64,000 nt of DNA, from the IMG/VR virus record IMGVR_UViG_3300037420_000837, positions 1 to 64,000 of that record, one strand, 5' to 3'. This stretch comes from a virus. Under the pieces are notes generated by a model. That model had not been told where the DNA came from. It made no database searches and saw only the letters and a program-made list of their open reading frames with translations. How positions within the stretch are numbered: the first letter of the stretch is position 1; every line of letters begins with the position of its first letter. Positions 1,514 to 62,821 of this stretch are shown here, in pieces. Made by a program: the position numbers and the translations under genes.

Positions 1514-1538
1514 CTAAGGGGGCTTTTAAGTCTGATGG
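1514..1538 (-). repeat. 25-nt motif copy (CATCAGAC..AAAAGCCCCCTTAG), co-oriented with gene 644..1507
   Basis: read as rc: CCATCAGACTTAAAAGCCCCCTTAGGAGCCCATG. Confidence 0.85.
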
Positions 1539-3524
1539 TTATTTGCTTGGAACCTCGCCTAGCCCACCCAACCCTAGGTCTCGGGCTCCGGTCAGGTCGC
1601 TAGCCACGGAGCGAATCTCACTCGTGAGGCCTGCGCCCTTGAAGGGGCCTGCGGGGTTGGTGGTGCGGGGGCGTCCATCGGCTCCCTTGGAGGTCTGCGG
1701 CTTAGACTGCTGGAGGCGAGCCTTGGACTCGGTTGCCAGCATACTCTCCAGCATCATCAGCTCGACTTGCTCTTTCAAGTTGGCTTGGTGCTCGGCCTGC
1801 ATCTCGTCCGGGGTTTTGACGAACTGGTCGGCGTTCGGGACCTCGAAGGCCTTGAGGAGCGCCGTGATGGCCACGTCCTCGCGGATGTACGGGCTCTGGG
1901 CAAGCAGCCCAGCCAGATTCATCAGGTTCCGTTGGCGGATGATTTTGTTGTTGGAGTAATTGGCCGCGACGATGTCGAAGTCAACCGCTCCGAGGAGTTC
2001 CTCCGGCTGCACCCATGCGAGCTTCTTGATGCCCGAGGGAGCGTCCGTGATGGTGATTTCCTCTTGGTCGGTCATGAACTGCTGACACAGGGCCGCACAC
2101 TGCGAGAGCAGCGGCTGCACGAGGTCGAGTTCAAGGTTCCGAATGAACTGCTTGAAGCGGTAGTTACCTTCCGAGATGACCTGCGAGATACCGGTGGCGG
2201 TATCGTTGCCTCCCGAGGAGCCTACACCGTGGGTGTAGAAATCCGAGATACCTGAGGTCATTTCAATCAGGCCCTTGTAGAGGGGCAGGATTTGATAATC
2301 ACCTGAGGCAGGCGTGAACGCCGGAAGCGGGAAGATGACCTTGGTGGGGTCTCCGACAACTCCAACCTTTCCGCCGGGGATGTTGAGGTTGTTCAGGGCA
2401 TCGTGGTCGATGTCGGCTTGAGTGTCGTACGCGTACCGCTTGTTGATGTTGATGTTCCAGTTATCGGAAATCATGTTCAACATCATGTCGAAGGAGTCAG
2501 CGAGGGAGCTGATGGTCTCTACAGCGCCGATTCCAAAGATTTCATTAGGAAGTTTGACGTACGAGGTATGAAGTATCGGGGGCTGTTGGTGAAGGTAAGG
2601 ATTAGGCCCGTCCCAAAGAAGGATGGGGTCACCGGTGTATAGCGCCCGTTTGTAGGACGTGATGTTAGCTCCAGTTCGTATGGAGTAACGCTGGTCTTTG
2701 TAAGCAAGGTTTTCCTTGAAATCCGCCGAGAAGGTCAGCAGGGAGCAGGTCTTTTCGGGGACGTTCCAGATTTCTGCCAGCCTTACCAGTACCTCCATCG
2801 GGTCCACATCCGGCTTGCCGTTCATCTTGATGTTGTCGACAAGCTTCTGGAGGGCGTCCGGGTAGTAAAGCTGAGGATTGACCTCAGCCTCCCGGAGCAT
2901 CTGCCCGACAGTCTTTTCGGTAAGGTGAACAATCGTGTGCCCGTCTGGGTCAACCAGCAGGTCAAACACGTCGATGGCGGTGAACTTGGGACAGCTGCGA
3001 GGGACCTTGACCTGCGTCGGGATAATCTTGGCCGGAACCGGAGCGCCGGTCTGGGGGTCAATGACCGGTTGCCCTGTGGTCGGGTCCATCAGAGGAATCG
3101 CCTGCGGCTTGGTTACGACCTCGTAGTCGTAGTCCCAGTCAACCTTGATGGCGGCGTGGCCGTAGATGCAGATGTTCCGCACCACGTCCTCAAAAACCGA
3201 AGTGAACTTCGCCTTGCGGAGTTTGTACTTGAGCACCATGTCAAGTGACATGGCGGCAAGGGCGTCCTGCGCTCCCCGGGGCTTGCACTCAAACCAGTCT
3301 TCGTAAGCAAAGAAGGCATCGTGCACGCGGGAGACAAGCGCCTCGACGTTCGAGTACGCGTAGCGGGAGCTCACGGAGCTCCGAGCGGTGATTTTGTCCG
3401 GAAACAGCTTCGTGTCGCGCACGCCCACGTACTGCTTGTAGTACTTCAGACGATTCGCGTCGTATTGCCTCCGGAACGTCTGGAGCCTACGCAGGGTGGT
3501 TGTAAGCTGTTGAACTCTGTCCAT
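1539..3524 (-). CDS. portal (head-tail connector) protein, putative
   Basis: 661 aa, size and acidic/disordered C-terminus typical of portal proteins, same strand block as terminase; call is by size/position, not a diagnostic motif. Confidence 0.5.
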   Translation of the reverse strand: MDRVQQLTTTLRRLQTFRRQYDANRLKYYKQYVGVRDTKLFPDKITARSSVSSRYAYSNVEALVSRVHDAFFAYEDWFECKPRGAQDALAAMSLDMVLKYKLRKAKFTSVFEDVVRNICIYGHAAIKVDWDYDYEVVTKPQAIPLMDPTTGQPVIDPQTGAPVPAKIIPTQVKVPRSCPKFTAIDVFDLLVDPDGHTIVHLTEKTVGQMLREAEVNPQLYYPDALQKLVDNIKMNGKPDVDPMEVLVRLAEIWNVPEKTCSLLTFSADFKENLAYKDQRYSIRTGANITSYKRALYTGDPILLWDGPNPYLHQQPPILHTSYVKLPNEIFGIGAVETISSLADSFDMMLNMISDNWNININKRYAYDTQADIDHDALNNLNIPGGKVGVVGDPTKVIFPLPAFTPASGDYQILPLYKGLIEMTSGISDFYTHGVGSSGGNDTATGISQVISEGNYRFKQFIRNLELDLVQPLLSQCAALCQQFMTDQEEITITDAPSGIKKLAWVQPEELLGAVDFDIVAANYSNNKIIRQRNLMNLAGLLAQSPYIREDVAITALLKAFEVPNADQFVKTPDEMQAEHQANLKEQVELMMLESMLATESKARLQQSKPQTSKGADGRPRTTNPAGPFKGAGLTSEIRSVASDLTGARDLGLGGLGEVPSK

Positions 3525-3623
3525 TAACTTTTGAAGGATTTATGAATGTACATCCCGAAGGCGATGGCTCCGAGAAGATGAAAGCTCTGGGTGACTACGA
3601 AGGTGAGGGCAGCAAGAAGGGCG

Positions 3624-3923
3624 TCAGCCATTGATTTTGAAGTTTCCTATCTCTTTGGGGGCTCGGCAAGCAGAGCAGTTTAGGAAACGGTCTCCTACGA
3701 TGAAGCCTCCTGCCGCGATGGCAAGTGCCGGAATGAGACTCTGAGTTAGCCCCAAAGCCACCCAGAAACCCAAACACATCCGACAAGTGAGTAATTCATT
3801 TATCTTCGGGTGCAGTTTCTTCAACCATCCCCGAGGCTTCTCCAGAAGGCTGCTGTTCAGCAGCACCTCCGTGAGATAGGCCTGTGCCGCGCACAAAACC
3901 ACAACTCTCGACAGCTCTTGCAT
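3624..3923 (-). CDS. small membrane protein with CxxC pairs
   Basis: hydrophobic stretches and two CxxC motifs; overlaps 3796-3923 of next gene, so true start may be internal Met (about 3779). Confidence 0.3.
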   Translation of the reverse strand: MQELSRVVVLCAAQAYLTEVLLNSSLLEKPRGWLKKLHPKINELLTCRMCLGFWVALGLTQSLIPALAIAAGGFIVGDRFLNCSACRAPKEIGNFKING

Positions 3924-4143
3924 AATCGTCCTCCCTGAACCCGACAGTCACGCTACTATCTCTGAAGTTGACCAAGATGGGAAACTGAGCAGGCCGACCG
4001 GGAAACATAACCGCGAGCCCTGTACCAATCACGGGGTCGTTCTGAGGGATGACTTCCTCGTAAGGGACTCCGCTGTTGTCGAGGTAGCGTTTTGCCCGCA
4101 TGCAATGCTCGCACCCTACAATTGAATAAAGCCTCAAAAACAT
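3796..4143 (-). CDS. glutaredoxin/NrdH-like redoxin
   Basis: N-terminal CEHC (CxxC) active-site motif in about 115 aa thioredoxin-fold-sized protein. Confidence 0.5.
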   Translation of the reverse strand: MFLRLYSIVGCEHCMRAKRYLDNSGVPYEEVIPQNDPVIGTGLAVMFPGRPAQFPILVNFRDSSVTVGFREDDYARAVESCGFVRGTGLSHGGAAEQQPSGEASGMVEETAPEDK

Positions 4144-4155
4144 ACCGTCCTCCGT

Positions 4156-5949
4156 TTAGACAGTTGAGCGCTTGTGATTGACCTTGTTTCTGACGCTCTT
4201 AGCTGCAGGAGCCGAGCGCCATTTCATGTACTCAAAACTCCAGCGGTAACACTCGTTGAATTGTTTGCCATTCCAGCCACACCCTTGACCCGGAATGTCC
4301 ATCAACATCATGTTTTGGAGCAGTGTATCCCCGCGTACTTGGTAAGTTGAATCGCCCGTTCTGGCAAACAGCCAAGCGTACATTGGAGCAATTAACAGAT
4401 TCAGAGCCTTCAAGTCTGTTCCAGCACCCGGAGGGGTGTTATAGGAAGCTTGCTTCGAGTTGTAGTACATGGCTCCGGGATAGTTCGGCAGGTTATATGC
4501 GTTGGCCCAGAGATAATCTGCCATGCGCTTGATAACCGCTCCGATTCTGGGGTCATGATATCCGGGAGTACAAGCTGAATCCTCGTAGCAAGTAATCAAC
4601 GCTTGTGCCCACAAGCCCACCATGAATGGTTGAATCCAATCAAAGGGGTCGGGACTGTCTATCCACTGGTCGGCTTTAGCGATATTGACATCTAGAATCT
4701 TTGAAAGCTTGGCTAGGCGTGAGGTGTCTCCTGTGGCTTTTATGTAAAACAGCTCGGCATTAAGTCTATAGGCTCCCTCACGAACTAGGAATGTCGGAGT
4801 AAGACCAGACCGGTCTAGATTGCCGTACACTGCCTGAGAACCTATGGCCAAATTCGAGACCCCAGTCCTAGAGTCCACGCTCCCATTAATCATCCAATCA
4901 TGGTATAAGCCATGTGGAAACACACGCCAGCCCTGCGGAGCACCATTGTTGGTGACAGTGACATAGGGTTGATAAACGTCTCTAGCCTGAGTCGCGCAAG
5001 AGTCCCATTGAGAAGGGTTACCCGTAAGTCCCCTAGTTGCGTCATACTGCTTGATGCGATTGTAGGTATACTGGCCATCATAGTACCAAGTGCCAGTCTC
5101 CACGCCAATACTGCCCGGAGTATTACACTTCGCAGCTCCGTAGGTAACCATTACATCTTCCCAGTTGTATGTGCACGCGGAAGTGCCGTCCATCTGCTTC
5201 GAGGAAGCAGTCATACACGGAATAGGAGGATACGAGGTAGGAGTCCCCAGAGCGAAGGTCGCGGGAGGCTCTACCACAATCGTCCAAGGGATATTCTTAG
5301 TTCCCGGAACTCCCCCAACAGCATCCACCTTAATGTTCATGCTGTAAGTTCCTACGGGGGTGCTTCCAGTAGTCTGCAAGACTACGTTGAAAGTTCCGCA
5401 GTCTCGGAAGTAAAAAATAGTATTCGCGCCATTCACACCTGACCCGCCGCAACCTGTAGGGGTATCCGACAAGGTGGTATTCGGAGGCATGTTCTGGAGG
5501 GTTATATTAAGGTTTTGGTTACCGCTGTCCGTTGTATCTGAGATACGGACGGGGTCAAACGTCAGAACAAGGCTTGACCCTTGATATACGTGCTTAGGTC
5601 CAAAGACATTGAACACGTAATCGTAAGCGCCTGCCGCGATTGCCGCAGGGGCCATCGAGAATGGGTTCGAGAAGACCGCCTTCGTGGTATCCGCAGTTGA
5701 CCTAGAAATCGCTTGAGAGTACCAGCCACTGGGAAATAACCCTGTAACAGTTACAGAGTGGGAGGTAGTCCCCCCTGTGTCTGTGATGGGCGTTGAGTTT
5801 CCAAACCCATCGTCATTGGCATAGGAATAAACTACCCGAGAATCCGCATCACAGTCTGTAGTCCAGTCCACACGAACAGACGTAGACGACAAGGCCGTGG
5901 TAGTCGGCCCTGAAGTGATGTTCGGGGTAGCTGCGCCGCAAGATGCCAT
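4156..5949 (-). CDS. tail-associated protein: N-terminal fibronectin-III-like domain plus putative polysaccharide-degrading (alpha/alpha-toroid-like) domain
   Basis: N-terminus TTTALSSTSVRVDWT is FN3-like; C-terminal W/Y-rich helical region resembles six-hairpin glycosidase/lyase folds; adjacent to fiber-like gene. Confidence 0.4.
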   Translation of the reverse strand: MASCGAATPNITSGPTTTALSSTSVRVDWTTDCDADSRVVYSYANDDGFGNSTPITDTGGTTSHSVTVTGLFPSGWYSQAISRSTADTTKAVFSNPFSMAPAAIAAGAYDYVFNVFGPKHVYQGSSLVLTFDPVRISDTTDSGNQNLNITLQNMPPNTTLSDTPTGCGGSGVNGANTIFYFRDCGTFNVVLQTTGSTPVGTYSMNIKVDAVGGVPGTKNIPWTIVVEPPATFALGTPTSYPPIPCMTASSKQMDGTSACTYNWEDVMVTYGAAKCNTPGSIGVETGTWYYDGQYTYNRIKQYDATRGLTGNPSQWDSCATQARDVYQPYVTVTNNGAPQGWRVFPHGLYHDWMINGSVDSRTGVSNLAIGSQAVYGNLDRSGLTPTFLVREGAYRLNAELFYIKATGDTSRLAKLSKILDVNIAKADQWIDSPDPFDWIQPFMVGLWAQALITCYEDSACTPGYHDPRIGAVIKRMADYLWANAYNLPNYPGAMYYNSKQASYNTPPGAGTDLKALNLLIAPMYAWLFARTGDSTYQVRGDTLLQNMMLMDIPGQGCGWNGKQFNECYRWSFEYMKWRSAPAAKSVRNKVNHKRSTV

Positions 5950-5953
5950 TTAG

Positions 5954-6748
5954 TTACTGAATCCTCTCAACAAGGAAGCCTTTACCGGTAAAAGCCTCGG
6001 TAGCAGCCGCGTTGAAGATGAACGCGAGGGTTTGTGAACCGGAGGTATTGACTGCGGAGGTAGCATAGCCTCCAGCGTTATTGCCACTTGCACCAATAAA
6101 TAGCGGGTCCGCAAGGATAGTCTGAGCGTTCTGGACGCCCGGGTCGTTACAAATTCTGACTCCCGCAAAGTTGGGGTTGGTGGTGCTGTTGTTGGAGTTC
6201 GCGGTGTAGGTAAACACTACCGAACCTCCAAACGACCACTTGAAAACTTTGTTGGCAGCCGTCGCAGTTGAGTTCAACCAGTCCACTGACACCCGGATAC
6301 ACGCGCCTGCAGGAATCGAAGAGATGGTGGTTGAGTAAACTGTTTGGTCAGCGGCATTTCCCGTAACGGGAGAAGTGGCTTTTTGCCAGCTTATTAACGA
6401 GCCGGAACCCAACTCCACGTAGGAGGCGTTGTTATACGAGCACTTGATACGGTGCGTGGTGGAATCTGCGTAGCAAAAAGAAACTCCCGTTGCAGGTCCC
6501 GAGGCAGGTGTAGTGCCTTCCGTCAGCTTCAGCCATCCACCTTCAGCTCCACCCGCCGTTGAGGTGAAGCTCGGAGCACTCACACCACCGCTTCCGGTAT
6601 AAGTGAGAGTCGTAGCATCATCGCTTAGAAGCGAATCGTCGACAGTTGTTGCAGCTACATATTTGGGAATTGCGTTAGTAGCACCTGAACTTACAGTTCC
6701 GCTACCACTGCCTCCGCCAGACCCGCCGCCGCCTAGAAAATTGCTCAT
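5954..6748 (-). CDS. tail fiber-like protein (Gly-rich N-terminus)
   Basis: MSNFLGGGGSGGGSGSG N-terminus, T/S/A/G-rich beta composition. Confidence 0.45.
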   Translation of the reverse strand: MSNFLGGGGSGGGSGSGTVSSGATNAIPKYVAATTVDDSLLSDDATTLTYTGSGGVSAPSFTSTAGGAEGGWLKLTEGTTPASGPATGVSFCYADSTTHRIKCSYNNASYVELGSGSLISWQKATSPVTGNAADQTVYSTTISSIPAGACIRVSVDWLNSTATAANKVFKWSFGGSVVFTYTANSNNSTTNPNFAGVRICNDPGVQNAQTILADPLFIGASGNNAGGYATSAVNTSGSQTLAFIFNAAATEAFTGKGFLVERIQ

Positions 6749-6749
6749 G

Positions 6750-7058
6750 TTAGCTCTTGAATGCCGGTGTCAGGCAGTAGTTGATAGAACTCGCCCCGGG
6801 GTTATAGAGGCGGATGCGGTCGTTCCCACGGTTGAGGTAGACCCAGAAGAGAGTGTTTGCAGGAATCCGAGTATAGGAAGCCGAAGAGGCTCCAATCTGA
6901 CCTGCGTAGCCCACGCGAATATGAATATCTCCGGTGGCCGAAAGCAAGGTCACCGAGTCTCCACCGAGCACAATATCAGCCGTGCTTGTGGTAGCAGCTA
7001 AGGAAGCAGTCGTAGGGGCACCTGCATCCAGCGCAAAAACTGCGTCCATTATTGCCAT
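6750..7058 (-). CDS. hypothetical protein
   Basis: ORF in operon-like run, ATG overlaps upstream stop. Confidence 0.4.
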   Translation of the reverse strand: MAIMDAVFALDAGAPTTASLAATTSTADIVLGGDSVTLLSATGDIHIRVGYAGQIGASSASYTRIPANTLFWVYLNRGNDRIRLYNPGASSINYCLTPAFKS

Positions 7059-7597: not shown

Positions 7598-7656
7598 AGG
7601 AATCTCCTAGAAATTGCAGGGAGCCGCTCGGAGGACAGGGCGGGGTTAGCAGCCCC

Positions 7657-8471: not shown

Positions 8472-8491
8472 GAGTCCTCCGAAGACCCCTT

Positions 8492-8851: not shown

Positions 8852-8866
8852 TTTATTGTTTTTCCT

Positions 8867-10378: not shown

Positions 10379-10865
10379 CCGTATTCTCGACTTCCTTCAT
10401 CAGTTCGGCGTATTCCTTGGCCGAAAGCCCCGCAAAGACGTTGATATTGCCTTCTTGGCCCGTCCAGCCCTCGGCTTTCATGAGCTTCTCAAGGGCATTC
10501 ACGGCCTTTTCCCACTGCTTTTCCTCGATGAGTTTCTGAACTAGCAGGTAAAGAAGCCCGATAGCCGACTGTTTGTCTCGCCCGGGGGTGTTGGCGAGCT
10601 CCTTGGCGAACCTCATGCGCTCGACTTGGAGCACTTTTTGGAAGGCTTCCGACTTGTAGATGGCTTCCGCCTCGGAGCTGGTCACGTCAATCTTGAGTTC
10701 CGAGCAGGCGTGCCGAAGTGGGACCTCCTGACGCACGACAATTCTAGCGGCTCGTTGGAACCAACTCTCTTCTTGTCCGTCAATTGAGGCTTGCTTTTTG
10801 GCCATATACGCGTACGCGTATATATTAGACGTCTTGAGGCTCCAAAACATTACAGGAGGCTCCAA
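10326..10865 (-). CDS. terS: terminase small subunit, putative
   Basis: 179 aa helical protein immediately upstream of and overlapping terL; first gene of the leftward block. Confidence 0.5.
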   Translation of the reverse strand: MEPPVMFWSLKTSNIYAYAYMAKKQASIDGQEESWFQRAARIVVRQEVPLRHACSELKIDVTSSEAEAIYKSEAFQKVLQVERMRFAKELANTPGRDKQSAIGLLYLLVQKLIEEKQWEKAVNALEKLMKAEGWTGQEGNINVFAGLSAKEYAELMKEVENTDERETGTGEGTSKTSLQ

Positions 10866-10890
10866 ATATATTTGGGACCCTAACGTCCCT

Positions 10891-10915
10891 CAGGGGGCTT
10901 TTTTGTCTGATGGGG
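10891..10915 (-). repeat. 25-nt motif copy upstream of terS
   Basis: rc: CCCCATCAGACAAAAAAGCCCCCTGAGGGAC. Confidence 0.85.
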
Positions 10916-11179: not shown

Positions 11180-11208
11180 CATCAGACCTCAAAAGCCCCC
11201 TCTGGAGG
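11180..11208 (+). repeat. 25-nt motif copy facing rightward block
   Basis: CATCAGACCTCAAAAGCCCCCTCTGGAGG. Confidence 0.85.
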
Positions 11209-15091: not shown

Positions 15092-15121
15092 CATCAGACC
15101 TTAACAAGCCCCCTTAGGGGC
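15092..15121 (+). repeat. 25-nt motif copy plus GCCCC-TTA-GGGGC hairpin, upstream of 15131 ORF
   Basis: CATCAGACCTTAACAAGCCCCCTTAGGGGCAAGGAGCCTATG. Confidence 0.85.
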
Positions 15122-23163: not shown

Positions 23164-23188
23164 CTAAGGGGGCTTTTGCTGTCTGATG
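23164..23188 (-). repeat. 25-nt motif copy (reverse orientation) abutting 3' end of RNA element B
   Basis: CTAAGGGGGCTTTTGCTGTCTGATG. Confidence 0.85.
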
Positions 23189-25308: not shown

Positions 25309-25333
25309 CATCAGACGGTAGAAGCCCCCTTAC
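25309..25333 (+). repeat. 25-nt motif copy immediately after tRNA-like gene
   Basis: CATCAGACGGTAGAAGCCCCCTTAC. Confidence 0.85.
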
Positions 25334-37950: not shown

Positions 37951-38216
37951 TTGTCTACTATTTTCTCTGGGGGCTGTTACAACTTGCCTTCTGGATGACT
38001 CTTATAACCGTGGCCCCGTATTGGGTTGGGAAGTATAGCTATGCGCTAATTGCTTACCTCCAAGACGGGCGACGGAAAACCTTGAGAGAGCAGGTGGCTG
38101 ACCTCAACGCGGACAACGAGAGCATCAAGTACCTTGCGTTGTGGATGGTAGGGATGGTGTCAAGCTTTGTGCTTGGCATCCTCTTAGTTACAGCCTACTT
38201 TCTCGGAAGACCCTAA
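37947..38216 (+). CDS. small membrane protein (2-3 TM)
   Basis: 89 aa; stop TAA is inside motif copy 38213-38238. Confidence 0.4.
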   Translation: MIVYYFLWGLLQLAFWMTLITVAPYWVGKYSYALIAYLQDGRRKTLREQVADLNADNESIKYLALWMVGMVSSFVLGILLVTAYFLGRP

Positions 38217-38238
38217 GGGGGCCTTCTAAGGTCTGATG
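38213..38238 (-). repeat. 25-nt motif copy (reverse), left arm of inverted pair
   Basis: CTAAGGGGGCCTTCTAAGGTCTGATG; contains stop codon of 37947..38216. Confidence 0.85.
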
Positions 38239-38427
38239 ATTGATGCGGTGCGGGTGGGTATTGTTTAAATCTGACAAACAGGGACGTACCGGAGAGTGGA
38301 ACACACCAGTTCTTCTCTTCCTTGGCGACAACCCTGTGGCAACGTCTGCTAGGGGGCTTGACGACCCAGTGTCTGATGCCCTCCAACAAACGCATCTAGA
38401 GGAGAATATCCCTCTAGGCAACTCACT

Positions 38428-38453
38428 CATCAGACCTTAAAAGTCCCCTTTGG
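38428..38453 (+). repeat. 25-nt motif copy, right arm of inverted pair, upstream of rsr
   Basis: CATCAGACCTTAAAAGTCCCCTTTGG. Confidence 0.85.
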
Positions 38454-38459: not shown

Positions 38460-38487
38460 CCCCCTCTTCGGAGGGGGATTTTTATTT
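38460..38487 (+). terminator. rho-independent terminator or 5'-UTR stabilising hairpin
   Basis: CCCCCTC-TTCG-GAGGGGG then ATTTTTATTT; sits between motif copy and rsr SD. Confidence 0.55.
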
Positions 38488-40625: not shown

Positions 40626-40704
40626 GAAACACTGTAACAAAAACCCACCCGAGGGCGTCTTATAGACGCCCGCTCCGGGGAGTCCTTTCCCGGAATGGAG
40701 CATA

Positions 40705-43495: not shown

Positions 43496-43520
43496 CTAAG
43501 GGGGCTTCTTAGGTCTGATG
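43496..43520 (-). repeat. 25-nt motif copy (reverse), left arm of inverted pair
   Basis: CTAAGGGGGCTTCTTAGGTCTGATG. Confidence 0.85.
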
Positions 43521-43577: not shown

Positions 43578-43605
43578 CATCAGGCCGTAGAAGCCCCCTT
43601 GGAGG
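43578..43605 (+). repeat. 25-nt motif copy, right arm of inverted pair, upstream of 43610 ORF
   Basis: CATCAGGCCGTAGAAGCCCCCTTGGAGG. Confidence 0.85.
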
Positions 43606-43786: not shown

Positions 43787-43913
43787 GCTGCTAGGCTATT
43801 CCCTGAACGACCTGATTCAGTATCTTCGATACCTTTACCCTACCCTGTAACATCCTGCGACGCGCCAGCGTCTTATATCATGCAGGACACAATCCCAAGG
43901 AAATAAACAATAA

Positions 43914-47364: not shown

Positions 47365-47722
47365 GAAAGACCACAACGCGGATTGTCAAAAGATTCTCGG
47401 GCAGGAGTGTAACGAGGTAAACGCGTGGTTGGATGACGCGTTTAGGAAGTTCGGCCCTCGTCACAGATTTGTGAAGCATCACTGGGAAGGCGTGGCCAAG
47501 GCTGAGGAGTTGTTTGGTGAGACCGGCAAACAAGCGGCCATCATCCACATCCTCCGAGACTGCGGCCACATCCCCAGCGCAAAGGACTACGAGGATGGGA
47601 CGGTAGATGTCCTCGGGTTCAAGCAAGATGACGGGGAGTATTTCATCGGCCACTGGGATGCAATTGCGTTCCGAAAAGCCGTGAGCGAACACATCCCGTC
47701 CCTAGAAATTAAGTCCGTATAG
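47354..47722 (+). CDS. hypothetical protein
   Basis: ATG overlaps pol stop; stop TAG lies inside motif copy 47720-47741. Confidence 0.4.
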   Translation: MSSRKDHNADCQKILGQECNEVNAWLDDAFRKFGPRHRFVKHHWEGVAKAEELFGETGKQAAIIHILRDCGHIPSAKDYEDGTVDVLGFKQDDGEYFIGHWDAIAFRKAVSEHIPSLEIKSV

Positions 47723-47741
47723 GGGGCTTTTATGTCTGATG
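47720..47741 (-). repeat. 25-nt motif copy (reverse), left arm of inverted pair
   Basis: TAGGGGGCTTTTATGTCTGATG. Confidence 0.85.
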
Positions 47742-47872: not shown

Positions 47873-47897
47873 CATCAGACCTTAATAGCCCCCTTAG
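47873..47897 (+). repeat. 25-nt motif copy, right arm of inverted pair
   Basis: CATCAGACCTTAATAGCCCCCTTAG. Confidence 0.85.
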
Positions 47898-47956
47898 TGT
47901 TACAATCCCTCCCTTTTGCACGTCCTATATCCCACAGGAGTACCCACCTAAATAAA

Positions 47957-52174: not shown

Positions 52175-52291
52175 TGGGGACTGAGGGGTTCTTGACGGTC
52201 TAAGGCACCGAGATTCCTTGTCGGGTTTTAGATGCGTTCGACTCGAAGTACAAGCTGCTTGGCTTGTCTGATTATAAGACGCGCCGGTAGC

Positions 52292-55200
52292 TTATTTTGT
52301 TTCAAGTTCAGGTCGAATATCTTCGTGGAAGAACCGAAGAATCTCAAGCTTCTGTTCGTGCAGGTCTTTGATTTGCTGCATCTTCTCTTCGGGCTTGAGG
52401 TCGTTGTCCTGCGCCACGCGTTTCATCTCTTCGCGAATGGCTCCAAGGTCCTTCTCCATCTGCGCGACTGCCTCGTGAGCTTCGACAAGTCGCTGCCTGC
52501 GAGGGTCTTCCAAGTACTGGTCCGCACGGTCAAAGTCCGTGGCGGCGAGATGGTTGAAAGTCCGGTTGAAGATTCGCGAGGATTCTGCCGTGCGGTAGAA
52601 CTCCTGCTCAAGGTTGACTTCCACTTGGTCGAGCTGAGAGCCGACAAAGCGGCGAGCAATCGGGCCGACTACCGGAGCCTTGGCCCACTCCTCGTTGCCG
52701 GAGAGCGGGATGCCTCCAGTGTCGTTGCGGTTTTGCCCTTGGAGGGAGTCTGCCATGTTCTTAGCAAAGCCTCCAACGCCGGTTGTGAAGGAATCGTAGG
52801 CGTGCTCGAAGCGCTTGGGTGAGGTGAGCATGTCACCGACCACAGGCATCTTGGCGAGGCCCTGCTCTTGCCCGGAGTTGTCGTAGATGACCTTCGTAAC
52901 CTTCTGAGCCGTGACCGAGGTGTTCGGGTCGGATTTCTCTGGGTTCTCAAGGTCTTCCATTCCCTTGCCTTCGATGGGGATACCACGGTAGGAATCGTAG
53001 TTGGCCGCCTGCTCGATGGGCTCTTTGAGGATGGGATTGAGAGAGCTGAGAGCTCCGCGTCCGAGACCTTCCCATGGGTTGGACGCCCGGATGTTGAACT
53101 GTCCCGGGACTACGTTTGAGACAAAGTCCAAGGTCGTCTGCTTCCAGTCGATGTTCTTGCGGTAGGTGTCTTCGACCGCAACCTCGATGGGGTTGTAAAT
53201 GACCTTCGCCCAGTGAGGCTTGGGGACCTTGACGTAGTTCATGCGGGTCTGGCCAGTGGTGGTATCGTAGACCGAGCCCAGCATGACGTACCAGTAGTTC
53301 GTCTTGTCCGTGTCGGAGACGTGGTCGATTTCGAGCGAGCCATCATCCCTGACGTATTGCGAGTTCCATTGGAACTGCGCCATCGCCATCAGGGTTGAGA
53401 CTCCGAGCAGACCTCCGGCCATCTTCGGGTCAGATATCATGCGCCCAATAGTTCGTCCGGTTCCCTGCAGGTTCGCATTGAAGAACATGTAGACGAGGTT
53501 GATGGCTGGGGAGAGAGTGCCCGAGGAGCCGAAGTCCGGAGAGCCTCCGAAGTTGCGGGTCTCCCAAGCAGCTTCCTTGGGTGACATCCCGATGCGCTGG
53601 TTGCGCTTGAAGGACATCAGCTTGGTGCTCTGCTCGACGAGGTCGTTGAAGTCCTCAACGGTCTCGATGGTGCGGATGACGTTGCCTGCGGTAGCTTCAG
53701 CGGCTGCCTTGCCGTAGCGGCCTTGGGAGGCCATCTCGATAGGCTTGGCGACCATCTGCTTGAGCGGGTCAACCACCGGACGGTGGAACTCCCGCACGGG
53801 TGAGAGGTTGCGTTGGAGCGTGGAGAAGCCTGCTCTGGAGCGCAGGAAGTCGAGGTACTGCTGGTCCTGTGAGGCCACAGACTTGAAGGCTGAGAGCCAA
53901 TCGGGGACGAAGGTAGCAATGCCTCGGAGGCTCCGAGCGCCGGATTTCGAGAGCCCAGCGTAATCGCCTGCGTCACGCACAAGGTTGGGCACCGAGAACG
54001 CGAGGTTGGCGAGGGTTGCGCCGGTACGGAAGACTGAGGCAGTCGCCCGCAAGAGAGTGCCGCCCACGACAGCGGTTGAAGCGGTCGAGGCGTTCTCGAT
54101 GGTCGAGGCGACGAACTCAGGGACTGCGTATTCGGTCTTGACGCCATCATGCCACGCCACAATGATACCCTCGTTGGGAGCGAGAGTGTGGCGAGTGGCA
54201 GGCTGGATGAGTTGGCCCCAGCCGTTGGGGTCGATGCCAGCAAGGTTTAGAACCGAGCGCACCACGTTGTTCTTCTGGACTTCCTTGTTGGCAATCTCAA
54301 TCTGACGGAGCGCTGCCTCAAAGGGGTCCTGGTTGTAGAGCGGGGAGCCCTCAAGTTCTTGGAGAGCCCTGCGGGTTTTGACCTCCAGAGACTTCGAGGA
54401 GTAGCGAATCTCCGCCTTCTGCATCTCGTCAAGGATACGCTGGAGCGGGATGTAACCTCGGCCTAGTTCAAGGCCTTTGTTGTAGATGCCTTCGGAGATG
54501 AGACCCGAGGCGTGGAGGCTGTCCCACGAGGTCTCAAGCTCTTGGTAGACTTGGTCTGCCCAGCGGTTAACGCGGTCCCAGTTCTCGGGTCCGAGAGACT
54601 CTCGGGTGAGCTGTAGGTCGCGAGCCACCTTGGCGCGGGTGTAGCCCTCGGGGACCACCGTGCTCTGGCGGAGTTTGTTGAGATATTCCCGAGCGTCGGC
54701 GCGGGCCATACGGGCCTTGCGCTTGAGCTCGACTACCTCTCGCATCTTCGAGCTGGATTCCACACGGTCTTGGATATCCATGGTGAGGTCCTTGGCTTGC
54801 TGCTTGTATTGCGCAGCCTCGTTCATCAGCTTGGACATCTTGCCTTGGACGTTGCGGATAGCGCGGTCGTAGGCACGGAGGTTGAGCGTGTCCTTGAGAG
54901 GACCAAGCAGACCTGAGTCTGCGGCCTCGCGGGAGATTTTGCCCAACACAATCCGAGACGCGTAGGAGACTCCAGCACCGCCTCCGTAGGCCATGCGGGA
55001 TTCTTTCCACGGGTCTTGGTCGATGTGAAGCTCGCGGATACCGGTGCGGTTCTGGAAGTCCTTGATGACATCCGGTGCGAACATTCGCAGGAAGCGATTG
55101 GGATTCTGGTTGAGGTAGACGAATTTGTCGTAGAGTTTTTGGAGAGCGTTGTAGGGGAGAGTCCGAAGGGTCTCGACTCGCTGCGGCTCTCGGGTCATGC

Positions 55201-58200
55201 CCTGCTCGTTACGGATGCGGGTGAGCTCAGCTGAGACTGCCGGGATTTGCTCGGCATCTTGCTTGGCGAGGGTCTCGACCACGGAGCCTAGGCCGAAGAA
55301 GTCTGCCTTGAGCGTGGACTTGTTGTCTACGTTGCGGACGAACTCCCGGGCTTTGGCCAAGGCCATCGGGTCGTTGGCCCCAAGGCCGTCCTTGTAGAGC
55401 TGCATGGCTTTTTCTAGAACAAAGGCCTTGCGCTCTTGAGACAGGTCTCTGAGGGCCAGTTGGCGCGAAATAACATCTGTACCGGCAGCCGGTAAACTAT
55501 CGCTGAGCGTCTTGGCGTTGACAAGCGCTTTGACGGCATCGTCGGAGAGCGGAGGCTTAGCGGCAGACTTCTGCTCCATTGCCCGGAACAGTTCGTTGTT
55601 GATGTCGATGAGTTGCTGGTGGGCGACGCCAGACTCCTCCATGACGTGCATCAAACGATTGATGGTCTTGAAGAGAGCAGGGTCGTCGGATTCTTTGAGA
55701 CCAGCAAATTTTTGGTAATGACGAGCTTGGAGCTGCTGGGCGATGCGGTCTCTGTACAAGGCCAGCAACGCCATGTGGGTGTCGGGCTTGTCCTTGAACG
55801 CACGGTCAATGTCGGCGGACTTGAGGCCGGTTTCGAGGAGCCTGACCTTCATCTTCTCACGCGGGTCGGTGATTTGAAGCTGGTCGCCCTCGGCACGCCA
55901 CGTGGAGAGCGGCGGAGCGCCCTCACGGGCCATGTCGTACATGGCCTTCATGCTAGCAGGTCCGGGCTCCCCGATGTACTTGTCGGCAAGTTTTTCTGCA
56001 AGGGCACGCTTGGCCGCCCCGTCGAGGTCCGGGCGTTCCTTGACGAAGTCGAGGATTTTCTCTACAACTATCTTGCCCGTCTCTGGGTCGAACTGGGTGA
56101 TATGGTTGAGCTTGTCGAGGAGGTTGGCGTTGGGGGAGAGCGCCTTGACATCAGACACAGAAGCCCCCTTAGGAGCTTCGGGCTTAGGGGCCTCAACCTT
56201 AGGCGCAGGACTTGCCGTGACGTTCTTGGCTTCCTCCACCTTGACGGTGTTTTGAGGAGTCGGCTTGCGTGCCTCGTCGATGGGCTTCGGAGCGACAACT
56301 TGCTCCCGCTGCTCAGGCCCTTCGGCCATGATGCGGTCGACCGGCTGCACATATTTCTTCGAGCCCGACCGGAACTTGACTTTCTCGCCGTCGATGCTCT
56401 CGATAATGCCACGCAGCACGGTGCCGGTGGGCAACTTGACAGCCACACTGTCCCCGGGCTTGCGTTCCACTAAGGGGGCTTTTTGGTCTGATGATACAGA
56501 GCTTACAAGCTTCTCCGGAGCCACAGCCTTGAGCCTTGCCGCCACCTTCTCCAGCACCGTCTCAACTGTGTGCGTCGCCTGCCCGAGCTGCTCAAGCCGC
56601 TTGTTGTAAGCGTTCATGAGCGCGATGTTCGGATTGTTCTCTGGGTTGATGAGCTTCGAGTTGTCGGCCTTGGCAATCTTCTTAGCCAGCGCGGGCATAG
56701 CCTTGCGGATTTCAGCGCCGGTCATCGAAGCAATCTTGGTGTCGAACTTCGTGAAGGTATCCTTGAGACCTTCTTGGTAGAAGTAATCCGAGAAGTACCG
56801 GCCCTGCGGGAGGGCTTTGGAGGGACTAAGGTCCGGCTCACGCTCCGGCAGGAGCACTTCCTTGGCCTGCACGGCCTTGCGCACGGCGTCCGTAGCCACG
56901 GCTGCGAGGCGCTTGTTGCGCTCGTCCGCGAGGCGTTTTTGGACGGCCTCGACACCTTTGTAACCAAATTTTTCGCGCAGGAGTCCCGTGTCCCTGTAGA
57001 GATGGCCGAGCTCGTCAGAGGAAAGATGCTCAAGCTGGCGCTTGCCAGAGACTAGGTCGGTCAAGACCTCGCGATTGATTTTCTCTTGCACCCCTGAGAC
57101 CTTGGACAGATTCTCAATGGAGCGGTTGATGACCTCAGCTTTCTGTTGGAGCTTGTCGGCAGCGGCTCGGATTGGCTCGCGGTTCTGCTCGCGGATGAGT
57201 TCCTTGGCGGCCTTAGGGTCGACGGCCTTGAGCTCGCGTAGTTGCTCACGCGCAGCACGGTCCTCAGGAGACAAGCTACGCTCGTCCCCAATGAGCGTTC
57301 GCGGTTTCTTGCCGGTGATGGTCTGCAAGGTGCGGAGAGAAATCTCCGGAAGGATGCTCTTACCTTGGCCCTTCCGGAAGGGGTAATTGATTATGACCGG
57401 AGTCTTGTTCTCAAGGATGCTCTCGTACTGAGAAATGATTTCCGGATTGATGGCAGGGATGACACCACTGTCAACGTCTGCCTTGATTTTCTGAAGCTCC
57501 TTGCGGATGAACTCGTGGGCCTCTTCGACCTGAGCCTTCTGACGAGGAGTGGTGTAGCGTTGCAAGCGCTGGATGTAGGGCTTGCTCTGGTCTTGAACAT
57601 CCCCGAGGGCTTGATGGATGGCCCGCTTCTCCGCCTTGATGGAGGTTGGAAGCTGGTCACGGAGCTCCTTAGCTACGGTGTCTGAGGCGACTAGGTTGTC
57701 AAGGAACTGCTTGCCTTTGAGGGTAGTGTCCCGAGCGGTCTTGAGGTCGCCCAGCAGAGTCCGAGCATCGGCGTCGCCGAGAGCTGCGTGATACTCCGTC
57801 TGGGTGGCTTTGATTTGTTTCTCAAGCCTCGCATTGTCTTTGTTGAGGAACGCGACCTGATTGTCTCTGAGCAGCCCTCGTTCATGCCCCTTGGCCACCG
57901 CTTGGTCGTGCTTGGCCAACATCTTCTTGTTGGTCAGGTAGCGCTCTTGAAGGTCTCCGAGCTTGGCTTGGAGTTCAGTGGCTTTGGCTTGGTCTGTCTG
58001 CTTGACAGGCTCAATGCCTTTCGCCATATCTTCGCCTGTGCCGGGGCCGACTTTCTCCGCCCGAATGACACTCGCTAACTTCCGTGAGTACTTGTTGAGC
58101 GTAGCGGGGTTGCTTCCCTGATAGGGCTCAAAGCTCCCGTCAGAGAATACCCGAGCAACGCTCCCGCCACGCTTCTCAAGCGCAGGAGAGATGTCGGGCT

Positions 58201-60007: not shown

Positions 60008-60009
60008 GG

Positions 60010-61176
60010 TTAATTACCTATTGCGTTCTTGATGATGTTGTCGACTTGCTCTGGCGTCAATCGTGGGGCTGCACTTGGCGCTGACGGAGAAGGTGCGACA
60101 GCTTTGCTGGGCGTCTTCTTGCCAGAGGATTTAGAGAAGGCTCCCCCTGAGGGGTCGACTCCTTGGTGGGATTCCTTGAAGGTGTCTACGATACCTTGGT
60201 TGTACTTCTCCCATTCACTGGGATTCTTGTAGTCCTTGATGCCGAGACGTTTGGCTTGGAGGGCGGTTTTGTAACCTCCCTTGGGGTCGAGGAGTTGGTT
60301 CTTGGCGAGCTCCCAATCAGCGGTGATTATGCGCTGGTCGGTGTCGGAAAGGCCGCCGTTCCTGCGGTCGACTGCGGTGGTGGCTCCGGCTCGGCTGCCT
60401 GCCTGCTGGCCTGCCATCACAGAAGCAAGACGCTGGGTTTCAGTTGCGAATCCCGTGGGGTCTTCCTCTGGGTCGAAGCCGTTGGCAAACGCGAGACGCT
60501 CCGGGAGAGTCTTGAGACCTCCACCGTATGCTAAGCCCTTTCCGGGAATTCCCGGAATCTTAACTGCGGCTCCGTCTGCGGTGATGCCATACAAGCCATC
60601 AGTGCGGTTCTCGTAGTGTTGGTAGGCTTTGCCTTGGTTGGCCAAGGCTCTCCCACCATTCATGAAGTACGCCGCGTGACCAAGCTTGTAGTAGGAATCC
60701 GCGAGTTTGTCTTCCAAGCCAATCTTCTGCATCTCGATATTGAGAGGCATCTGGGCTCGGGCAATATACTCTTGGCGCTGTTGCTGAGCGCCCCCTACAA
60801 GTCCCCGGGCTACGTTAGCGATGTTGTCGCCAGCGTTCATGGAGCTGGGCCCCATGTTGCTCAAGGCAAAGAGGCCGTTCTCGATTCCCCGCGAGAGCGC
60901 GGGATGGTCAGCGAAGTACCCGTTGTTGGGGAGAATCAGATTCGGACCAGAGCGAGGCAGGTTCGCCTGCATCTGGTTGAAGACATTTTCGTACGGGGAC
61001 ATGCGCTGTTTGACAGCGTCCATCAGGTCGATGTAGGTGTCGCCGTAGCGGGCGTTGACAAAGTCGCCGCCTCCGTAATCCCCGCTGAGAGGAGCCTGTT
61101 GCTGGACAGGCATTCTGTAACCGCTGGCGGGATTGAAGAGGTTGGCAAGGCCAGAAAATACGTTTGAGAAACCCAT
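60010..61176 (-). CDS. hypothetical virion protein (Gly/Gln/Asn-rich)
   Basis: 388 aa, low-complexity C-terminus. Confidence 0.45.
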   Translation of the reverse strand: MGFSNVFSGLANLFNPASGYRMPVQQQAPLSGDYGGGDFVNARYGDTYIDLMDAVKQRMSPYENVFNQMQANLPRSGPNLILPNNGYFADHPALSRGIENGLFALSNMGPSSMNAGDNIANVARGLVGGAQQQRQEYIARAQMPLNIEMQKIGLEDKLADSYYKLGHAAYFMNGGRALANQGKAYQHYENRTDGLYGITADGAAVKIPGIPGKGLAYGGGLKTLPERLAFANGFDPEEDPTGFATETQRLASVMAGQQAGSRAGATTAVDRRNGGLSDTDQRIITADWELAKNQLLDPKGGYKTALQAKRLGIKDYKNPSEWEKYNQGIVDTFKESHQGVDPSGGAFSKSSGKKTPSKAVAPSPSAPSAAPRLTPEQVDNIIKNAIGN

Positions 61177-61179
61177 GGT

Positions 61180-61872
61180 TTAACCTCTGAATCCCGGCCC
61201 GAATAGGTTGGAGTAACTGGAAGGTTGCGCGACGAAGGAACGGGAGAAGCTGCCGCCCATGTAGGGCTGCGAGGCGTAACTTGTCGAGAACGGATTCCCC
61301 CAGAGGTTGCCGCCAATGTTGCTTGCAATACCTGCGCCTGTGGCCGCAATCTTGCCGCCCAACGAACCGGCCTGTGCCGCCATAGAAGCTCCGCCCGTCA
61401 TGATACCGGTGGCAACTCCGAGGCCAGCGCCTACGACCTGCGGGAGCCACGTGCCAAGACCTGAGGTTTTCTCAACTGACTCTTGTCCGGTCTGGAGAGG
61501 CTTGTAGTTCATTGCCTGACCGCTGGCCGCCATGCGGCGGTTCTCGGCGTCGAAGAGTCCATTGAGGAAGATGTTGGATTCGCTCGCGGAGTTCGCTCGG
61601 TCCTGCGCGGCAGCAAGCTGCTGCATCGCTCCGGAGTTATTTGCGGTGCCCATCATCTGCCCACGTTGGAACAGGTTCTGCATCCCGCGCTGGTTAATCT
61701 TTTGCTGTTGACCAAGTGCCATCTGCAAGTTCTGGTTAAAGTAACTTGCCGTGAGGGGGTCCTTCATATAATCAGTCAGAGTGTTCTGAATCGGAGTCTG
61801 CAGAGTATTGAAGGTGTTCATACTCGGCTGATTATATGTATTGGTTGTCTTGGTCTCTTTTTTGCTTCCCAT
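61180..61872 (-). CDS. hypothetical virion protein, Gln/Asn-rich with glycine-zipper C-terminus
   Basis: GAGLGVATGIMTGGASMAAQAGSLGGKIAATGAGIASNIGG. Confidence 0.45.
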   Translation of the reverse strand: MGSKKETKTTNTYNQPSMNTFNTLQTPIQNTLTDYMKDPLTASYFNQNLQMALGQQQKINQRGMQNLFQRGQMMGTANNSGAMQQLAAAQDRANSASESNIFLNGLFDAENRRMAASGQAMNYKPLQTGQESVEKTSGLGTWLPQVVGAGLGVATGIMTGGASMAAQAGSLGGKIAATGAGIASNIGGNLWGNPFSTSYASQPYMGGSFSRSFVAQPSSYSNLFGPGFRG

Positions 61873-61881
61873 CGGGAGTCC

Positions 61882-62232
61882 TTAGAGATTCTTCTTGAAG
61901 CGGTATTCAGCGGTTGGGCTGGTTTGTTCCCCGCCCCAGTTCTTGATAACCTTCTGCCACTTCTCGTCAGCGGTGTCGACGTTGAAGTAATAGAAAGGAA
62001 CTCCTTGGAACCTGAGCATGTTTTCTAAGCCCCAGATGAACAGGGCCTTTCGCGAGTCGGGAGCCGAGGCGTCGAAGAACACAGGGTCAATCTCCGTGAC
62101 TGTTCGGATGACTGCGTAGTCTGTCTTCCCGTCGCGTCCGTCCATGGCCACTACAATACATCCCGGGCCAAGGTCAGACTTCCCTTTCAGATTCTCAACT
62201 TCTTCAGGTTTCGCAAGGCGGATTGGTTCCAT
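61882..62232 (-). CDS. hypothetical protein
   Basis: 116 aa ORF. Confidence 0.4.
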   Translation of the reverse strand: MEPIRLAKPEEVENLKGKSDLGPGCIVVAMDGRDGKTDYAVIRTVTEIDPVFFDASAPDSRKALFIWGLENMLRFQGVPFYYFNVDTADEKWQKVIKNWGGEQTSPTAEYRFKKNL

Positions 62233-62501
62233 TATCTGTCCTCTAACTTGATAAACTCAATCGGCGGGGTAGGCTCGTCGAGGACGATACCTAGCTTCTC
62301 GCAGATACGTTGCTGCGCATGGTAGATATGGGGAAGGTGGTTTGTCGCCATGCTCTCGACAAACTGCCTAGAAATCTCGTTTGCAACTGATTGCCGGATA
62401 AACCAACGTACGACTTGGATACAGTACTTCGTTAGGGTGGCAGCTCCAACGAGTATGGCTACTCCAGAGCTGGTTGCAAGGACGAGGGACGTGGTTGACA
62501 T
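62232..62501 (-). CDS. small membrane protein
   Basis: 89 aa, C-terminal TM helices; motif copy immediately upstream of ATG. Confidence 0.4.
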   Translation of the reverse strand: MSTTSLVLATSSGVAILVGAATLTKYCIQVVRWFIRQSVANEISRQFVESMATNHLPHIYHAQQRICEKLGIVLDEPTPPIEFIKLEDR

Positions 62502-62821
62502 TAAGGGTTTGAGGGGGCTTTTGTGTCTGATAGAACCCCGGCTGCAGCCAAGCTTGCCTTGACCGCCTCCACTTGAGCCTTCACATTCAGCAAGGCCGTG
62601 TGGGTTTCTTCAGACTTCGCCACCTGCTCCATGATTAAGGTTTGAACATCGGTTTCAAAACCAACTGCAGTGGTTCCAGCATCCTCAACAGCCTTGTCGA
62701 GTGCCATGACATTGAGGGTGTGGATGTTGTCCGTGGAGGGGTCATCGCAGCACCGCAGGGTGACTGCGATTTCTCCATTGGACAGGTCTTTGATTTCAAT
62801 TACTTTAGTAACACATGCCAT
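62501..62821 (-). CDS. hypothetical protein
   Basis: 106 aa ORF. Confidence 0.4.
   Translation of the reverse strand: MACVTKVIEIKDLSNGEIAVTLRCCDDPSTDNIHTLNVMALDKAVEDAGTTAVGFETDVQTLIMEQVAKSEETHTALLNVKAQVEAVKASLAAAGVLSDTKAPSNP
62511..62533 (-). repeat. 25-nt motif copy about 10 nt upstream of start of 62232..62501
   Basis: GAGGGGGCTTTTGTGTCTGATAG on plus strand. Confidence 0.8.

Follow-up and report, generated by a model that had tools for sequence, protein, structure and literature searches.

Background

In mycobacteriophages of the L5 type (Cluster A), monomeric two-domain repressors bind more than 20 asymmetric sites, the stoperators, which lie in short intergenic spaces and at which elongation is blocked in a polar manner (PMC9283540). 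Recurrent sites of other kinds include the promoters of phage phiEco32, which consist of AATGTA at -11.5 only (PMC12276001), and the promoters of extracytoplasmic function (ECF) sigma factors, in which an AAC -35 element and a CGT(C/A) -10 element are separated by a spacer of 14-17 bp, and where homopolymer tracts within the spacer can matter (PMC5758882). Here we describe a repeat of about 25 nucleotides (nt), which we call motif M, in positions 1 to 64,000 of IMG/VR virus record IMGVR_UViG_3300037420_000837. This stretch, referred to below as the window, represents 64 kb of a 70.5-kb genome of an uncultured phage, of which the remaining 6.5 kb were examined within locus L110; the same phage contig is present in Logan and JGI metagenomes.

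Motif M has a defined bipartite anatomy, lies mostly at gene boundaries in an orientation that follows local transcription in two thirds of the copies, and changes in concert within each phage lineage. The sequence-only reading of the window had proposed a phage-specific promoter, with the phage-encoded sigma factor at 34268-34837 as the candidate reader. The idea of a lineage-specific, orientation-biased DNA-level element tied to gene boundaries stands, and a link to transcription is reasonable, while the sigma factor as its reader is not supported: the genome contains a separate promoter set that this sigma factor most likely reads, judging by the match between promoter and protein sequences.

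Anatomy and placement of the repeat

Motif M can be written as CATCAGAC-N2-4-ARAAGCCCCCTTAG and is present in 15 canonical copies in the window, where close to none would be expected. A search with AAAAGCCCCCTTAG allowing up to two mismatches returned 14 matches versus 0.39 expected, and the exact bipartite form CATCAGAC-N2-4-ARAAGCCCCCT was found nine times and not once in 100 shuffles. With the flanks aligned, the first element (box A, CATCAGAC) is identical in 13 of the 15 copies, and is followed by a gap of 2, 3 or 4 nt, by ARAAGCCCCCT and by a looser TAG, with no conservation beyond the ~25 nt of the motif. The whole genome contains 16 canonical copies and one long-spacer variant (38349..38378, minus strand) with box A 6 nt farther from the GC run; the sixteenth canonical copy belongs to the part beyond the window (L110 14241-14265), where the adaptor gene and a 633-aa gene flank it, with a start codon 3 nt on. 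All 14 copies originally listed are present, with positions within 2 nt, but that list lacked the copy at 56149-56172 (+), the variant and the copy in L110. Public collections gave no matches in IMG/VR, one in GTDB genomes and five in metagenomes, all of these single and at chance level.

The earlier count of ten copies co-oriented with the local genes is exact for the canonical copies in the window (10/15; 11/16 genome-wide), and 12 or 13 of the 16 sites are confined to intergenic DNA or touch no more than gene ends. In the window, 6-60 nt separate the end of the motif from the start codon that follows. A Shine-Dalgarno sequence is supplied by the motif tail in some copies only, such as those at 1514 (TTAGGAG) and 43578 (TTGGAGG), and a local hairpin accompanies a minority of copies only.

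Among the co-oriented sites, the copy at 1514..1537 (-) takes up the 31 nt that separate the portal stop codon from the next gene, whose ATG follows after 6 nt, and it has orthologous copies behind the portal gene in two related loci, L012 (9454) and L013 (18571). The copy at 15092..15117 (+) starts directly behind a stop codon and 13 nt ahead of an ATG, the one at 62509..62532 (-) is located in the tail-gene block 7 nt before an ATG, and the one at 25309..25333 (+) lies directly behind an odd tRNA and heads the operon that contains the sigma gene. At 43578..43602 (+) the motif ends 7 nt upstream of a conserved Cys-rich open reading frame (ORF; 43610-43786), at 38428..38452 (+) only 7 nt separate it from an intrinsic terminator (CCCCCTCTTCGGAGGGGG and a T-run, 38460..38487, +), behind which the Ro60 gene lies, and at 47873..47897 (+) it abuts the -35 box of an ECF-type promoter at 47899. 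Two outward-facing copies flank the divergent control region, as had been recognised: 10889..10912 (-), which faces terS, begins 4 nt past a weak sigma-70-like -10 box and is followed after ~35 nt by the terS promoter of ECF type, and 11180..11204 (+), which faces the rightward early block and has orthologous early-facing copies at L013 9242 and L012 311. In total, three copies of the motif adjoin promoters.

Five of the 15 copies are antisense to the local genes. The copy at 23164..23188 (-) lies just upstream of a COOH-NH2 ligase gene, and L013 (784) has a copy at the same place and in the same orientation. Those at 38213..38238 (-), the first of a three-site module, and at 47718..47741 (-) overlap the stop codons of an upstream plus-strand gene and of gene 47312-47722, respectively, while that at 43496..43520 (-) is located 20 nt past the stop codon of a plus-strand gene. 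The fifth (56149..56172, +) lies within the giant ORF of the leftward block, with the in-frame reading PKGASVSD, and is convergent with the sense copy in the same ORF (56470..56493, -; in-frame reading SSDQKAPL). The latter had been noted as a possible internal promoter; that it is embedded in frame is correct, but its partner makes it part of a conserved convergent pair, which fits an internal promoter poorly. The pair is found in a low-complexity, P/K/E/A-rich linker of the 7.7-kb ORF in three lineages, with equivalents at 21557 (-)/20942 (+) in L028 and at 21518 (-)/20053 (+) in L033. A shufflon-like in-frame inversion of the enclosed segment was ruled out by a stop codon in the inverted frame. 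None of the minus-strand ORFs behind the antisense copies is conserved and they look like antisense artefacts, hence these copies were also rejected as drivers of leftward genes; there was no paralogy among the genes that precede them.

Copies less than 2.5 kb apart form inverted pairs (10889/11180, 23164/25309, 38349/38428, 43496/43578, 47718/47873 and 56149/56470), the sole exception being 38213/38349. The sequences enclosed by the pairs are 57-2100 nt long and mutually unrelated, both divergent and convergent polarities occur, and half of the copies are solitary. Two gene calls near the pairs deserve correction: the pipeline call at 43518-43850 (110 aa) differs from the conserved product, which is the 58-aa Cys-rich ORF at 43610-43786 mentioned above, and an uncalled 46-aa zinc-ribbon ORF (47732-47872) lies between the copies at 47718 and 47873.

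Conservation among related phages

Searches with the terminase large subunit (TerL) and PolA identified a large family of 66-72-kb metagenomic contigs, in which the architecture of motif M recurs at orthologous places with lineage-specific boxes, so that the comparison with related phages that had been suggested as a check bears out the repeat. In the closest relatives (P-type: L012, L013 and L028; TerL 74-75% identical to that of the window) the motif reads CCACCAACC-N2-4-A(A/G)AAGCCCCC-(T)ATA, in short form CCACCAACC..AAAAGCCCCCTATA. In the C-type phages (L017-L025 and L033; TerL ~61%) it reads TCCTCGC-N3-4-AACGGGGTTAG, and in the D-type phages (L014 and L030; TerL 66% in L014) CCTACCTA-AAAAGGGGTT. 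The P-type motif occupies the places known from the window, i.e. behind the portal gene, facing the early genes, antisense before the ligase gene, in the three-site module and as the convergent pair in the giant ORF; the +6 variant of the module is kept in L028, where its box A has followed the change of the other copies. The motifs of the C-type and D-type phages likewise occur in both orientations, and the C-type phages also have the pair in the giant ORF.

Box A is uniform within each genome and differs between lineages, even at orthologous positions, which implies a trans-acting reader that co-evolves with it. On this comparison of sequences, motif M would be a functional cis element, and the unit-wise change of the box across all copies resembles the way in which phage immunity specificities differ. 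Orientation can change at a fixed place: one orthologous intergenic site has the motif on the plus strand in L018 and on the minus strand in L020, L021 and L025, with the same gene downstream. At M' sites, as we call the sites in these relatives, gene content is variable, as two small genes of the structural block are swapped in order and one gene is gained or lost exactly there (L020 10400-11200, L025 10880-11700, L018 7650-8400), and a degenerate M'-like box (CCTCGCG-N10-ACTAAG) precedes the swap site in all three loci.

Motif M is not universal in the family. L029/L111 and L035 contain no motif M in the replication or structural region, not even behind the portal gene or in the control region; L111 has no gap at the former place, where the portal gene is overlapped by the gene that follows. 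Gene 47957-48280 is the only gene in the PolA neighbourhood whose presence matches that of motif M, which makes it a weak lead.

Promoters attributed to the phage sigma factor

The product of 34268-34837 (+) matches Sigma70_r2/r4_2 and the solved ECF sigma factors SigL, sigma-E, SigW and SigH (E-values down to 6e-7). Syntenic orthologues with 25-37% identity, followed by the same ligase gene, are present in L029, L031, L032, L033 and L035; these came from synteny and tblastn, as a word-indexed search for homologues returned the query itself only. No second sigma paralogue was found in the window.

When the relatives were searched for motif M, a second motif emerged, with a -35 box, N14-15 and GCGTCTAA(C/T). 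Its form in the window, which we call class 2, is G(T/A)(A/T)AC(A)-N15-(G/A)CGTC(T/C)TAT, with five copies versus 0.04 in shuffles, all of them co-oriented with and upstream of genes (terS, replication genes, integrase). These are located at 10824..10853 (-; GTAATG-N15-ACGTCTAAT, upstream of terS; orthologues L013 9513 and L012 594), 40634..40663 (+; GTAACA-N15-GCGTCTTAT; orthologue L028 5748), 43847..43876 (+; GTAACA-N15-GCGTCTTAT, nearly identical to L028 8719), 47899..47928 (+; GTTACA-N15-ACGTCCTAT; orthologue L028 12849) and 52274..52303 (-; GAAACA-N15-GCGTCTTAT, upstream of small ORFs and the integrase gene; orthologue L028 17202). Every class 2 site of the window thus has an orthologous copy in P-type phages (L012, L013, L028), and variants occur in the C-type phages, L016, L029, L035 and L111, the C-type form being GTAATA-N15-GGGTCTAAAT and including divergent pairs in the control region. 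A near-perfect palindrome (GGGCGTCTTATAGACGCCC, 40653-40671) overlaps the -10 box of the promoter at 40634. The start of terS is probably near 10800, downstream of its own promoter, rather than at the TTG at 10865.

With AAC and CGTC cores and a spacer of N15, class 2 fully fits the description of ECF promoters (PMC5758882). The -10 element is CGTCTAA where the region-2 loop of the sigma factor reads FRGD(S/G)KF (window, L029, L035), and GGTCTAA where it reads FNGKSQF (L033). This covariation, together with what is known of the ECF family, assigns the sigma factor to class 2, and the product of 34268-34837 is most likely the reader of these promoters rather than of motif M. L029/L111 and L035 have the sigma factor and the class 2 promoter and not motif M, and the window and the P-type phages have the class 2 consensus in common while their box A differs. 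Motif M is evidently independent of the ECF sigma factor and its promoters, as judged from this distribution. Sigma-70 consensus promoters were not above chance in the 40 kb scanned, and a sigma-32-like reading of CCCCCTAT/CCCCCTTA was discarded since it fails in the lineages with a GGGG run.

Genome and family context

The window is divided into a leftward structural block (1-10865 and 50963-64000, minus strand), with an SU10-type portal, terminase, a 2571-aa internal protein with an LPD38 domain and a small tyrosine recombinase, and a rightward early and replication block (11343-50935, plus strand), with three phiEco32-type COOH-NH2 ligases, a GATase, the ECF-like sigma factor, Ro60, an AAA_24 protein, PolA fused to a uracil-DNA glycosylase domain and a DUF3987 protein. 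Megablast gave no relative among isolated phages, and the identity to portal relatives did not exceed 26%. The phage is podovirus-like and related to the phiEco32/SU10 gene pool, with the SU10-type portal, the COOH-NH2 ligases and the small sigma factor in common with phiEco32-like phages. A peptide-ligase or tagging-type gene set (23205-24545, 25678-26022, 28920-31497, 32142-33044, 34791-35558 and 44409-44906), comprising three COOH-NH2 ligases, GATase, RimK-like, PTH2, GGACT and JAB peptidase genes, agrees with predictions for phiEco32-like phages; searches for related loci with the GATase and with an alignment of the 255-aa ligase gave no match. The family A DNA polymerase with an N-terminal family-4 uracil-DNA glycosylase domain (44908-47364) is a fusion kept in hundreds of relatives.

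Several other features were noted. In the middle of the divergent control region is a long G tract (CTGGGGGGGGGAGGGGGGGGGGAGGGGGG, 11021-11050), for which an origin, a genome end, G-quadruplex DNA or an assembly problem are all conceivable. A further repeat (TTGAAAACAAAGGACTTAG), which is missing from the window and occurs three times in the control region of relatives (L014 8633-8702 and 9227-9249; L012 213-240; L013 9185-9215), may be an early promoter or operator. The tRNA at 25234-25304 (+), the only Rfam match in the window, has an abnormal anticodon loop and is preceded by ~380 nt of GC-rich, structured-looking sequence (24850-25230), and a separate element resembling a tRNA 3' half (T-arm GGGGGTTCAAATCCCCC) is found at 23060-23135; a Y-RNA or tRNA-like partner of the phage Ro60/TROVE protein (38500-39894) is conceivable. 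In the relatives, a LAGLIDADG homing endonuclease gene (L111 2464-2859) is inserted right behind the TerL gene of an L029-type phage, and L029 itself (17212-18619) has a second tyrosine integrase, of full length, behind which a tRNA 3' end-like sequence with CCACCA as its last bases could represent an attP, so some family members may be temperate.

Discussion

We tentatively favour the reading that motif M represents polar operator or roadblock sites of a predicted two-domain DNA-binding protein, comparable to the mycobacteriophage stoperators, and regard this as quite possible though short of probable. According to this model, a phage-encoded, sequence-specific protein would recognise the motif as double-stranded DNA, with one domain on box A (CATCAGAC) and a second, joined by a flexible linker, on the box made up of the A-run, the GC run and TT. 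The asymmetric sites would act on RNA polymerase in a manner that depends on their orientation: as operators at or just past promoters, which would apply to both outward-facing copies in the control region and to the one next to the -35 box at 47899, and, in the short stretches that separate genes or modules, as polar roadblocks or insulators, with inverted pairs stopping traffic from both sides. Both the two-domain protein as reader and a block rather than a start of transcription as its effect are what we infer from the arrangement of the sites.

Two half-sites that are read independently would tolerate gaps of 2-4 nt as well as the conserved +6 site, which a promoter could not, and this favours a reading by half-sites. 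The five copies that are antisense to every local gene are conserved as well as the sense copies. Three placements speak for an effect on passing or starting polymerases, namely the copy at 38428 with a terminator right after it, the one at 47873 against a -35 box, and the one facing terS (10912-10889) just behind its sigma-70-like -10 box. The pair within the giant ORF would follow from the long stretch without intergenic DNA, where sites could be placed in no other way.

Several observations weigh against sites of this kind. A search of 20 early ORFs with Pfam revealed no helix-turn-helix protein, and the precomputed tables gave no candidate for the reader. All of the 240 TerL/PolA relatives listed are on contigs of at most 72.3 kb, with no sign of integrated prophages, which makes silencing of the lysogeny type doubtful. 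Late in infection, the co-oriented sites in the late operon (behind the portal gene, behind the adaptor gene and at 62509) would have to be free of the protein or without effect, and L5 sites are strictly co-oriented with transcription, while here the ratio is only ~2:1. Sites placed directly before start codons and in front of the capsid module, and conserved to a T7-like degree, would be just as typical of phage-specific promoters, and the sigma-70-like promoters beside the control-region copies are chance-level matches.

The strongest rival, a live one though we consider it unlikely, is a second phage-specific promoter class, at which host RNA polymerase would start with the help of a very divergent sigma-like or MotA/AsiA-like phage factor distinct from the ECF sigma factor, and whose antisense copies would give antisense RNA that helps to shut off the upstream genes. 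Promoters would account for the 11 of 16 copies that are co-oriented and 3-60 nt before start codons, one per 4-13 kb along both long transcription blocks, and for the copy that separates the portal gene from the scaffold/capsid module in the window and the P-type phages and is placed like the strong late promoters of T7-like phages. Conservation at 22 of 25 positions combined with lineage-specific change resembles the T7-group promoters, the geometry from an A-rich hexamer over a 7-nt GC-rich stretch to the A of TTAG/TATA/ATG is coherent in four lineages, the tandem arrangement with ECF promoters at terS and at 47899 would be normal for genes expressed in two phases, and the operon of the sigma gene is headed by motif M (25309) only. 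However, no RNA polymerase was found anywhere in the 70.5-kb genome, the 6.5 kb beyond the window included, and no second sigma factor in the window, and the same capsid and tail genes are expressed in sister lineages that lack motif M. As promoters, one in three copies would transcribe against the local genes, two convergent promoters would be conserved inside an essential giant ORF, and the conservation of the +6 spacer variant is at odds with a promoter. The transcript from 38428 would begin 7 nt ahead of a strong terminator, the flip in orientation between L018 and L020, L021 and L025 would leave the downstream gene without a promoter, start codons at 3, 6, 7 and 13 nt past the motif end mean that no single start site fits all copies, and the putative melting region is GC-rich. 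If motif M is a promoter after all, the family must encode a transcription factor that is missed by all current profiles. The giant protein itself was considered as a virion RNA polymerase and rejected, as it has no match in PDB and neither a DxDGD nor a T7-type motif.

A recombination element is the next alternative, and an improbable one. Motif M would then be the target of a site-specific enzyme, or a short homology for cassette swaps between co-infecting relatives, similar to the promoter early stem-loops (PeSLs) of T4-type phages and loosely to repetitive extragenic palindromic doublets forming hairpins (REPINs) or miniature inverted-repeat transposable elements (MITEs), with any regulation secondary. 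The DNA at or between copies is indeed variable, as seen for the 287-aa gene after 1514, for Ro60 plus methyltransferase versus a 494-aa gene, for the segment between the giant-ORF copies, and for the extra gene and order swap between L020 and L025 at M' sites. In addition, inverted close copies avoid the deletions that occur between direct repeats, motif M is gained and lost more than the ECF promoters, and the phage genes include those for a Sak4-type AAA_24 protein and exonucleases. On the other hand, the concerted change of box A needs a partner that reads the sequence, and conversion driven by homology would be unable to reset just one end of a repeat of 25 nt. The conserved small tyrosine recombinase also occurs in lineages without motif M, the sequences enclosed by pairs are unrelated and an in-frame inversion in the giant ORF would give a stop codon, and the presence of both pair polarities with half of the copies solitary does not make a MITE or REPIN family, for which no transposase was found either. 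The orientation bias and the closeness to start codons would also remain unexplained. Under any reading, motif M marks breakpoints of gene-cassette exchange in these genomes.

The original proposal, motif M as the promoter of the ECF sigma factor (34268-34837), with box A as the -35 element, TTAG as the -10 element and a conserved spacer of 12-14 bp, has become very improbable. The distance between box A and TTAG is close to the 14-17 bp of ECF promoters (PMC5758882), and the ECF -35 boxes of L029 (CCTACCAA) and L035 (GACMAGA) resemble the box A of other lineages (CCTACCTA, CCACCAACC, CATCAGAC); box A as an ECF -35 element, taken from these two loci, was dropped once the GTAACA...CGTC class appeared beside motif M in the window and L028. 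A far better ECF promoter (AAC...CGTC, N15) is thus present in the genome, with a -10 element covarying with the region-2 loop of the sigma factor. The window and the P-type phages share this promoter and differ in box A, there are sigma-bearing lineages without motif M, the motif contains neither AAC nor CGT, and the antisense copies, the pair and the spacing are as problematic here as for any other promoter.

An RNA-level role is just as improbable, be it through inverted pairs folding into a 22-bp interrupted duplex (an RNase III site or structured boundary) or through single sense copies that bind a translational regulator or an antitermination factor in the manner of nut boxA-boxB: the pair 38213/38428 does fold into a long stem with a structured interior (z = -5.9), box A with a variable spacer and a GC-rich box recalls the lambda nut sites, one copy lies just ahead of a terminator and several overlap ribosome-binding sites, but half of the copies are partnerless, the stability of the fold is a trivial consequence of an inverted repeat, a local hairpin at box B exists in a minority of copies only, in three cases (10853, 47899 and L028 5748) the motif is upstream of the promoter and so outside its transcript, and antisense copies reach the mRNA as the complement only, yet are equally conserved. 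This last point also makes the mRNA 5' processing or stability element suggested earlier hard to maintain, and a terminator, the other suggestion, is not supported since there is no consistent hairpin with U-tract, with weak terminator-like matches only at 10889 and 47718 when read on the plus strand.

Returning to the operator or roadblock sites, their most far-reaching form would be an accessory, fast-diversifying insulation system, in which a two-domain protein stops RNA polymerase in a polar manner on a 25-nt asymmetric word that is placed at module boundaries in both orientations, and even within a gene of 2571 codons, and which is layered on, and independent of, the ECF sigma cascade of the phage. 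We consider this possible, if somewhat doubtful. If true, it would be the first stoperator-like system outside the actinobacteriophages and the first with paired bidirectional sites. Polar roadblocks or operators would mean that genome-wide silencing via asymmetric sites is not peculiar to mycobacteriophages, and would be a source of compact, orthogonal and lineage-specific protein-DNA pairs. What the analysis separates in any case is two regulatory codes in one phage genome, a readable set of ECF sigma promoters and motif M, and the former, the most useful by-product of this work, now allows middle and late transcription units to be annotated in a large family of uncultured phages.

Comparison with described systems

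The lambda nut sites have a boxB hairpin, which is seen in few copies of motif M, and at 10853, 47899 and L028 5748 motif M lies upstream of promoters. The start-associated and extended start-associated sequences (SAS/ESAS) of Cluster K mycobacteriophages are found a few bases before many start codons, overlapping the ribosome-binding site and, as far as is known, always oriented with the gene; the closeness to start codons is common to both, but motif M also occurs reversed, inside an ORF and behind stop codons. The PeSLs of T4-type phages reportedly combine sigma-70 promoters with stem-loops as direct repeats that flank small variable genes at shuffling breakpoints (as described by Arbiol and colleagues in 2010). 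Like motif M they are short regulatory-type repeats at breakpoints, while motif M is not sigma-70-like, has no consistent stem-loop and has its close copies inverted. ECF promoters differ from motif M, in which AAC and CGT are missing, the spacer is conserved and both orientations are used. The promoters of the T7 group and the gp36-dependent middle and late promoters of phiEco32 are likewise conserved over ~23-25 nt, recurrent upstream of genes and lineage-specific, but T7-type promoters go with an encoded phage polymerase and a fixed register, as opposed to the gap of 2-4 nt (+6 once) and the antisense copies of motif M.

The L5-type stoperators are 13 nt long, while motif M is 25 nt long and bipartite with a variable gap. 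Unlike stoperators, one third of the copies of motif M are reversed, close copies form inverted pairs and some lie inside an ORF; there is also no repressor found (with Pfam, in 20 early ORFs) and no integrated form seen, and the phage is podovirus-like rather than an actinobacterial siphovirus. On the other side, both are made up of many asymmetric sites distributed genome-wide over very short intergenic gaps and promoters, with an orientation linked to transcription, and in both the site sequence diverges between related phages. Stoperators are read by two DNA-binding domains of one protein (PMC9283540), and the same arrangement is what we propose for motif M.

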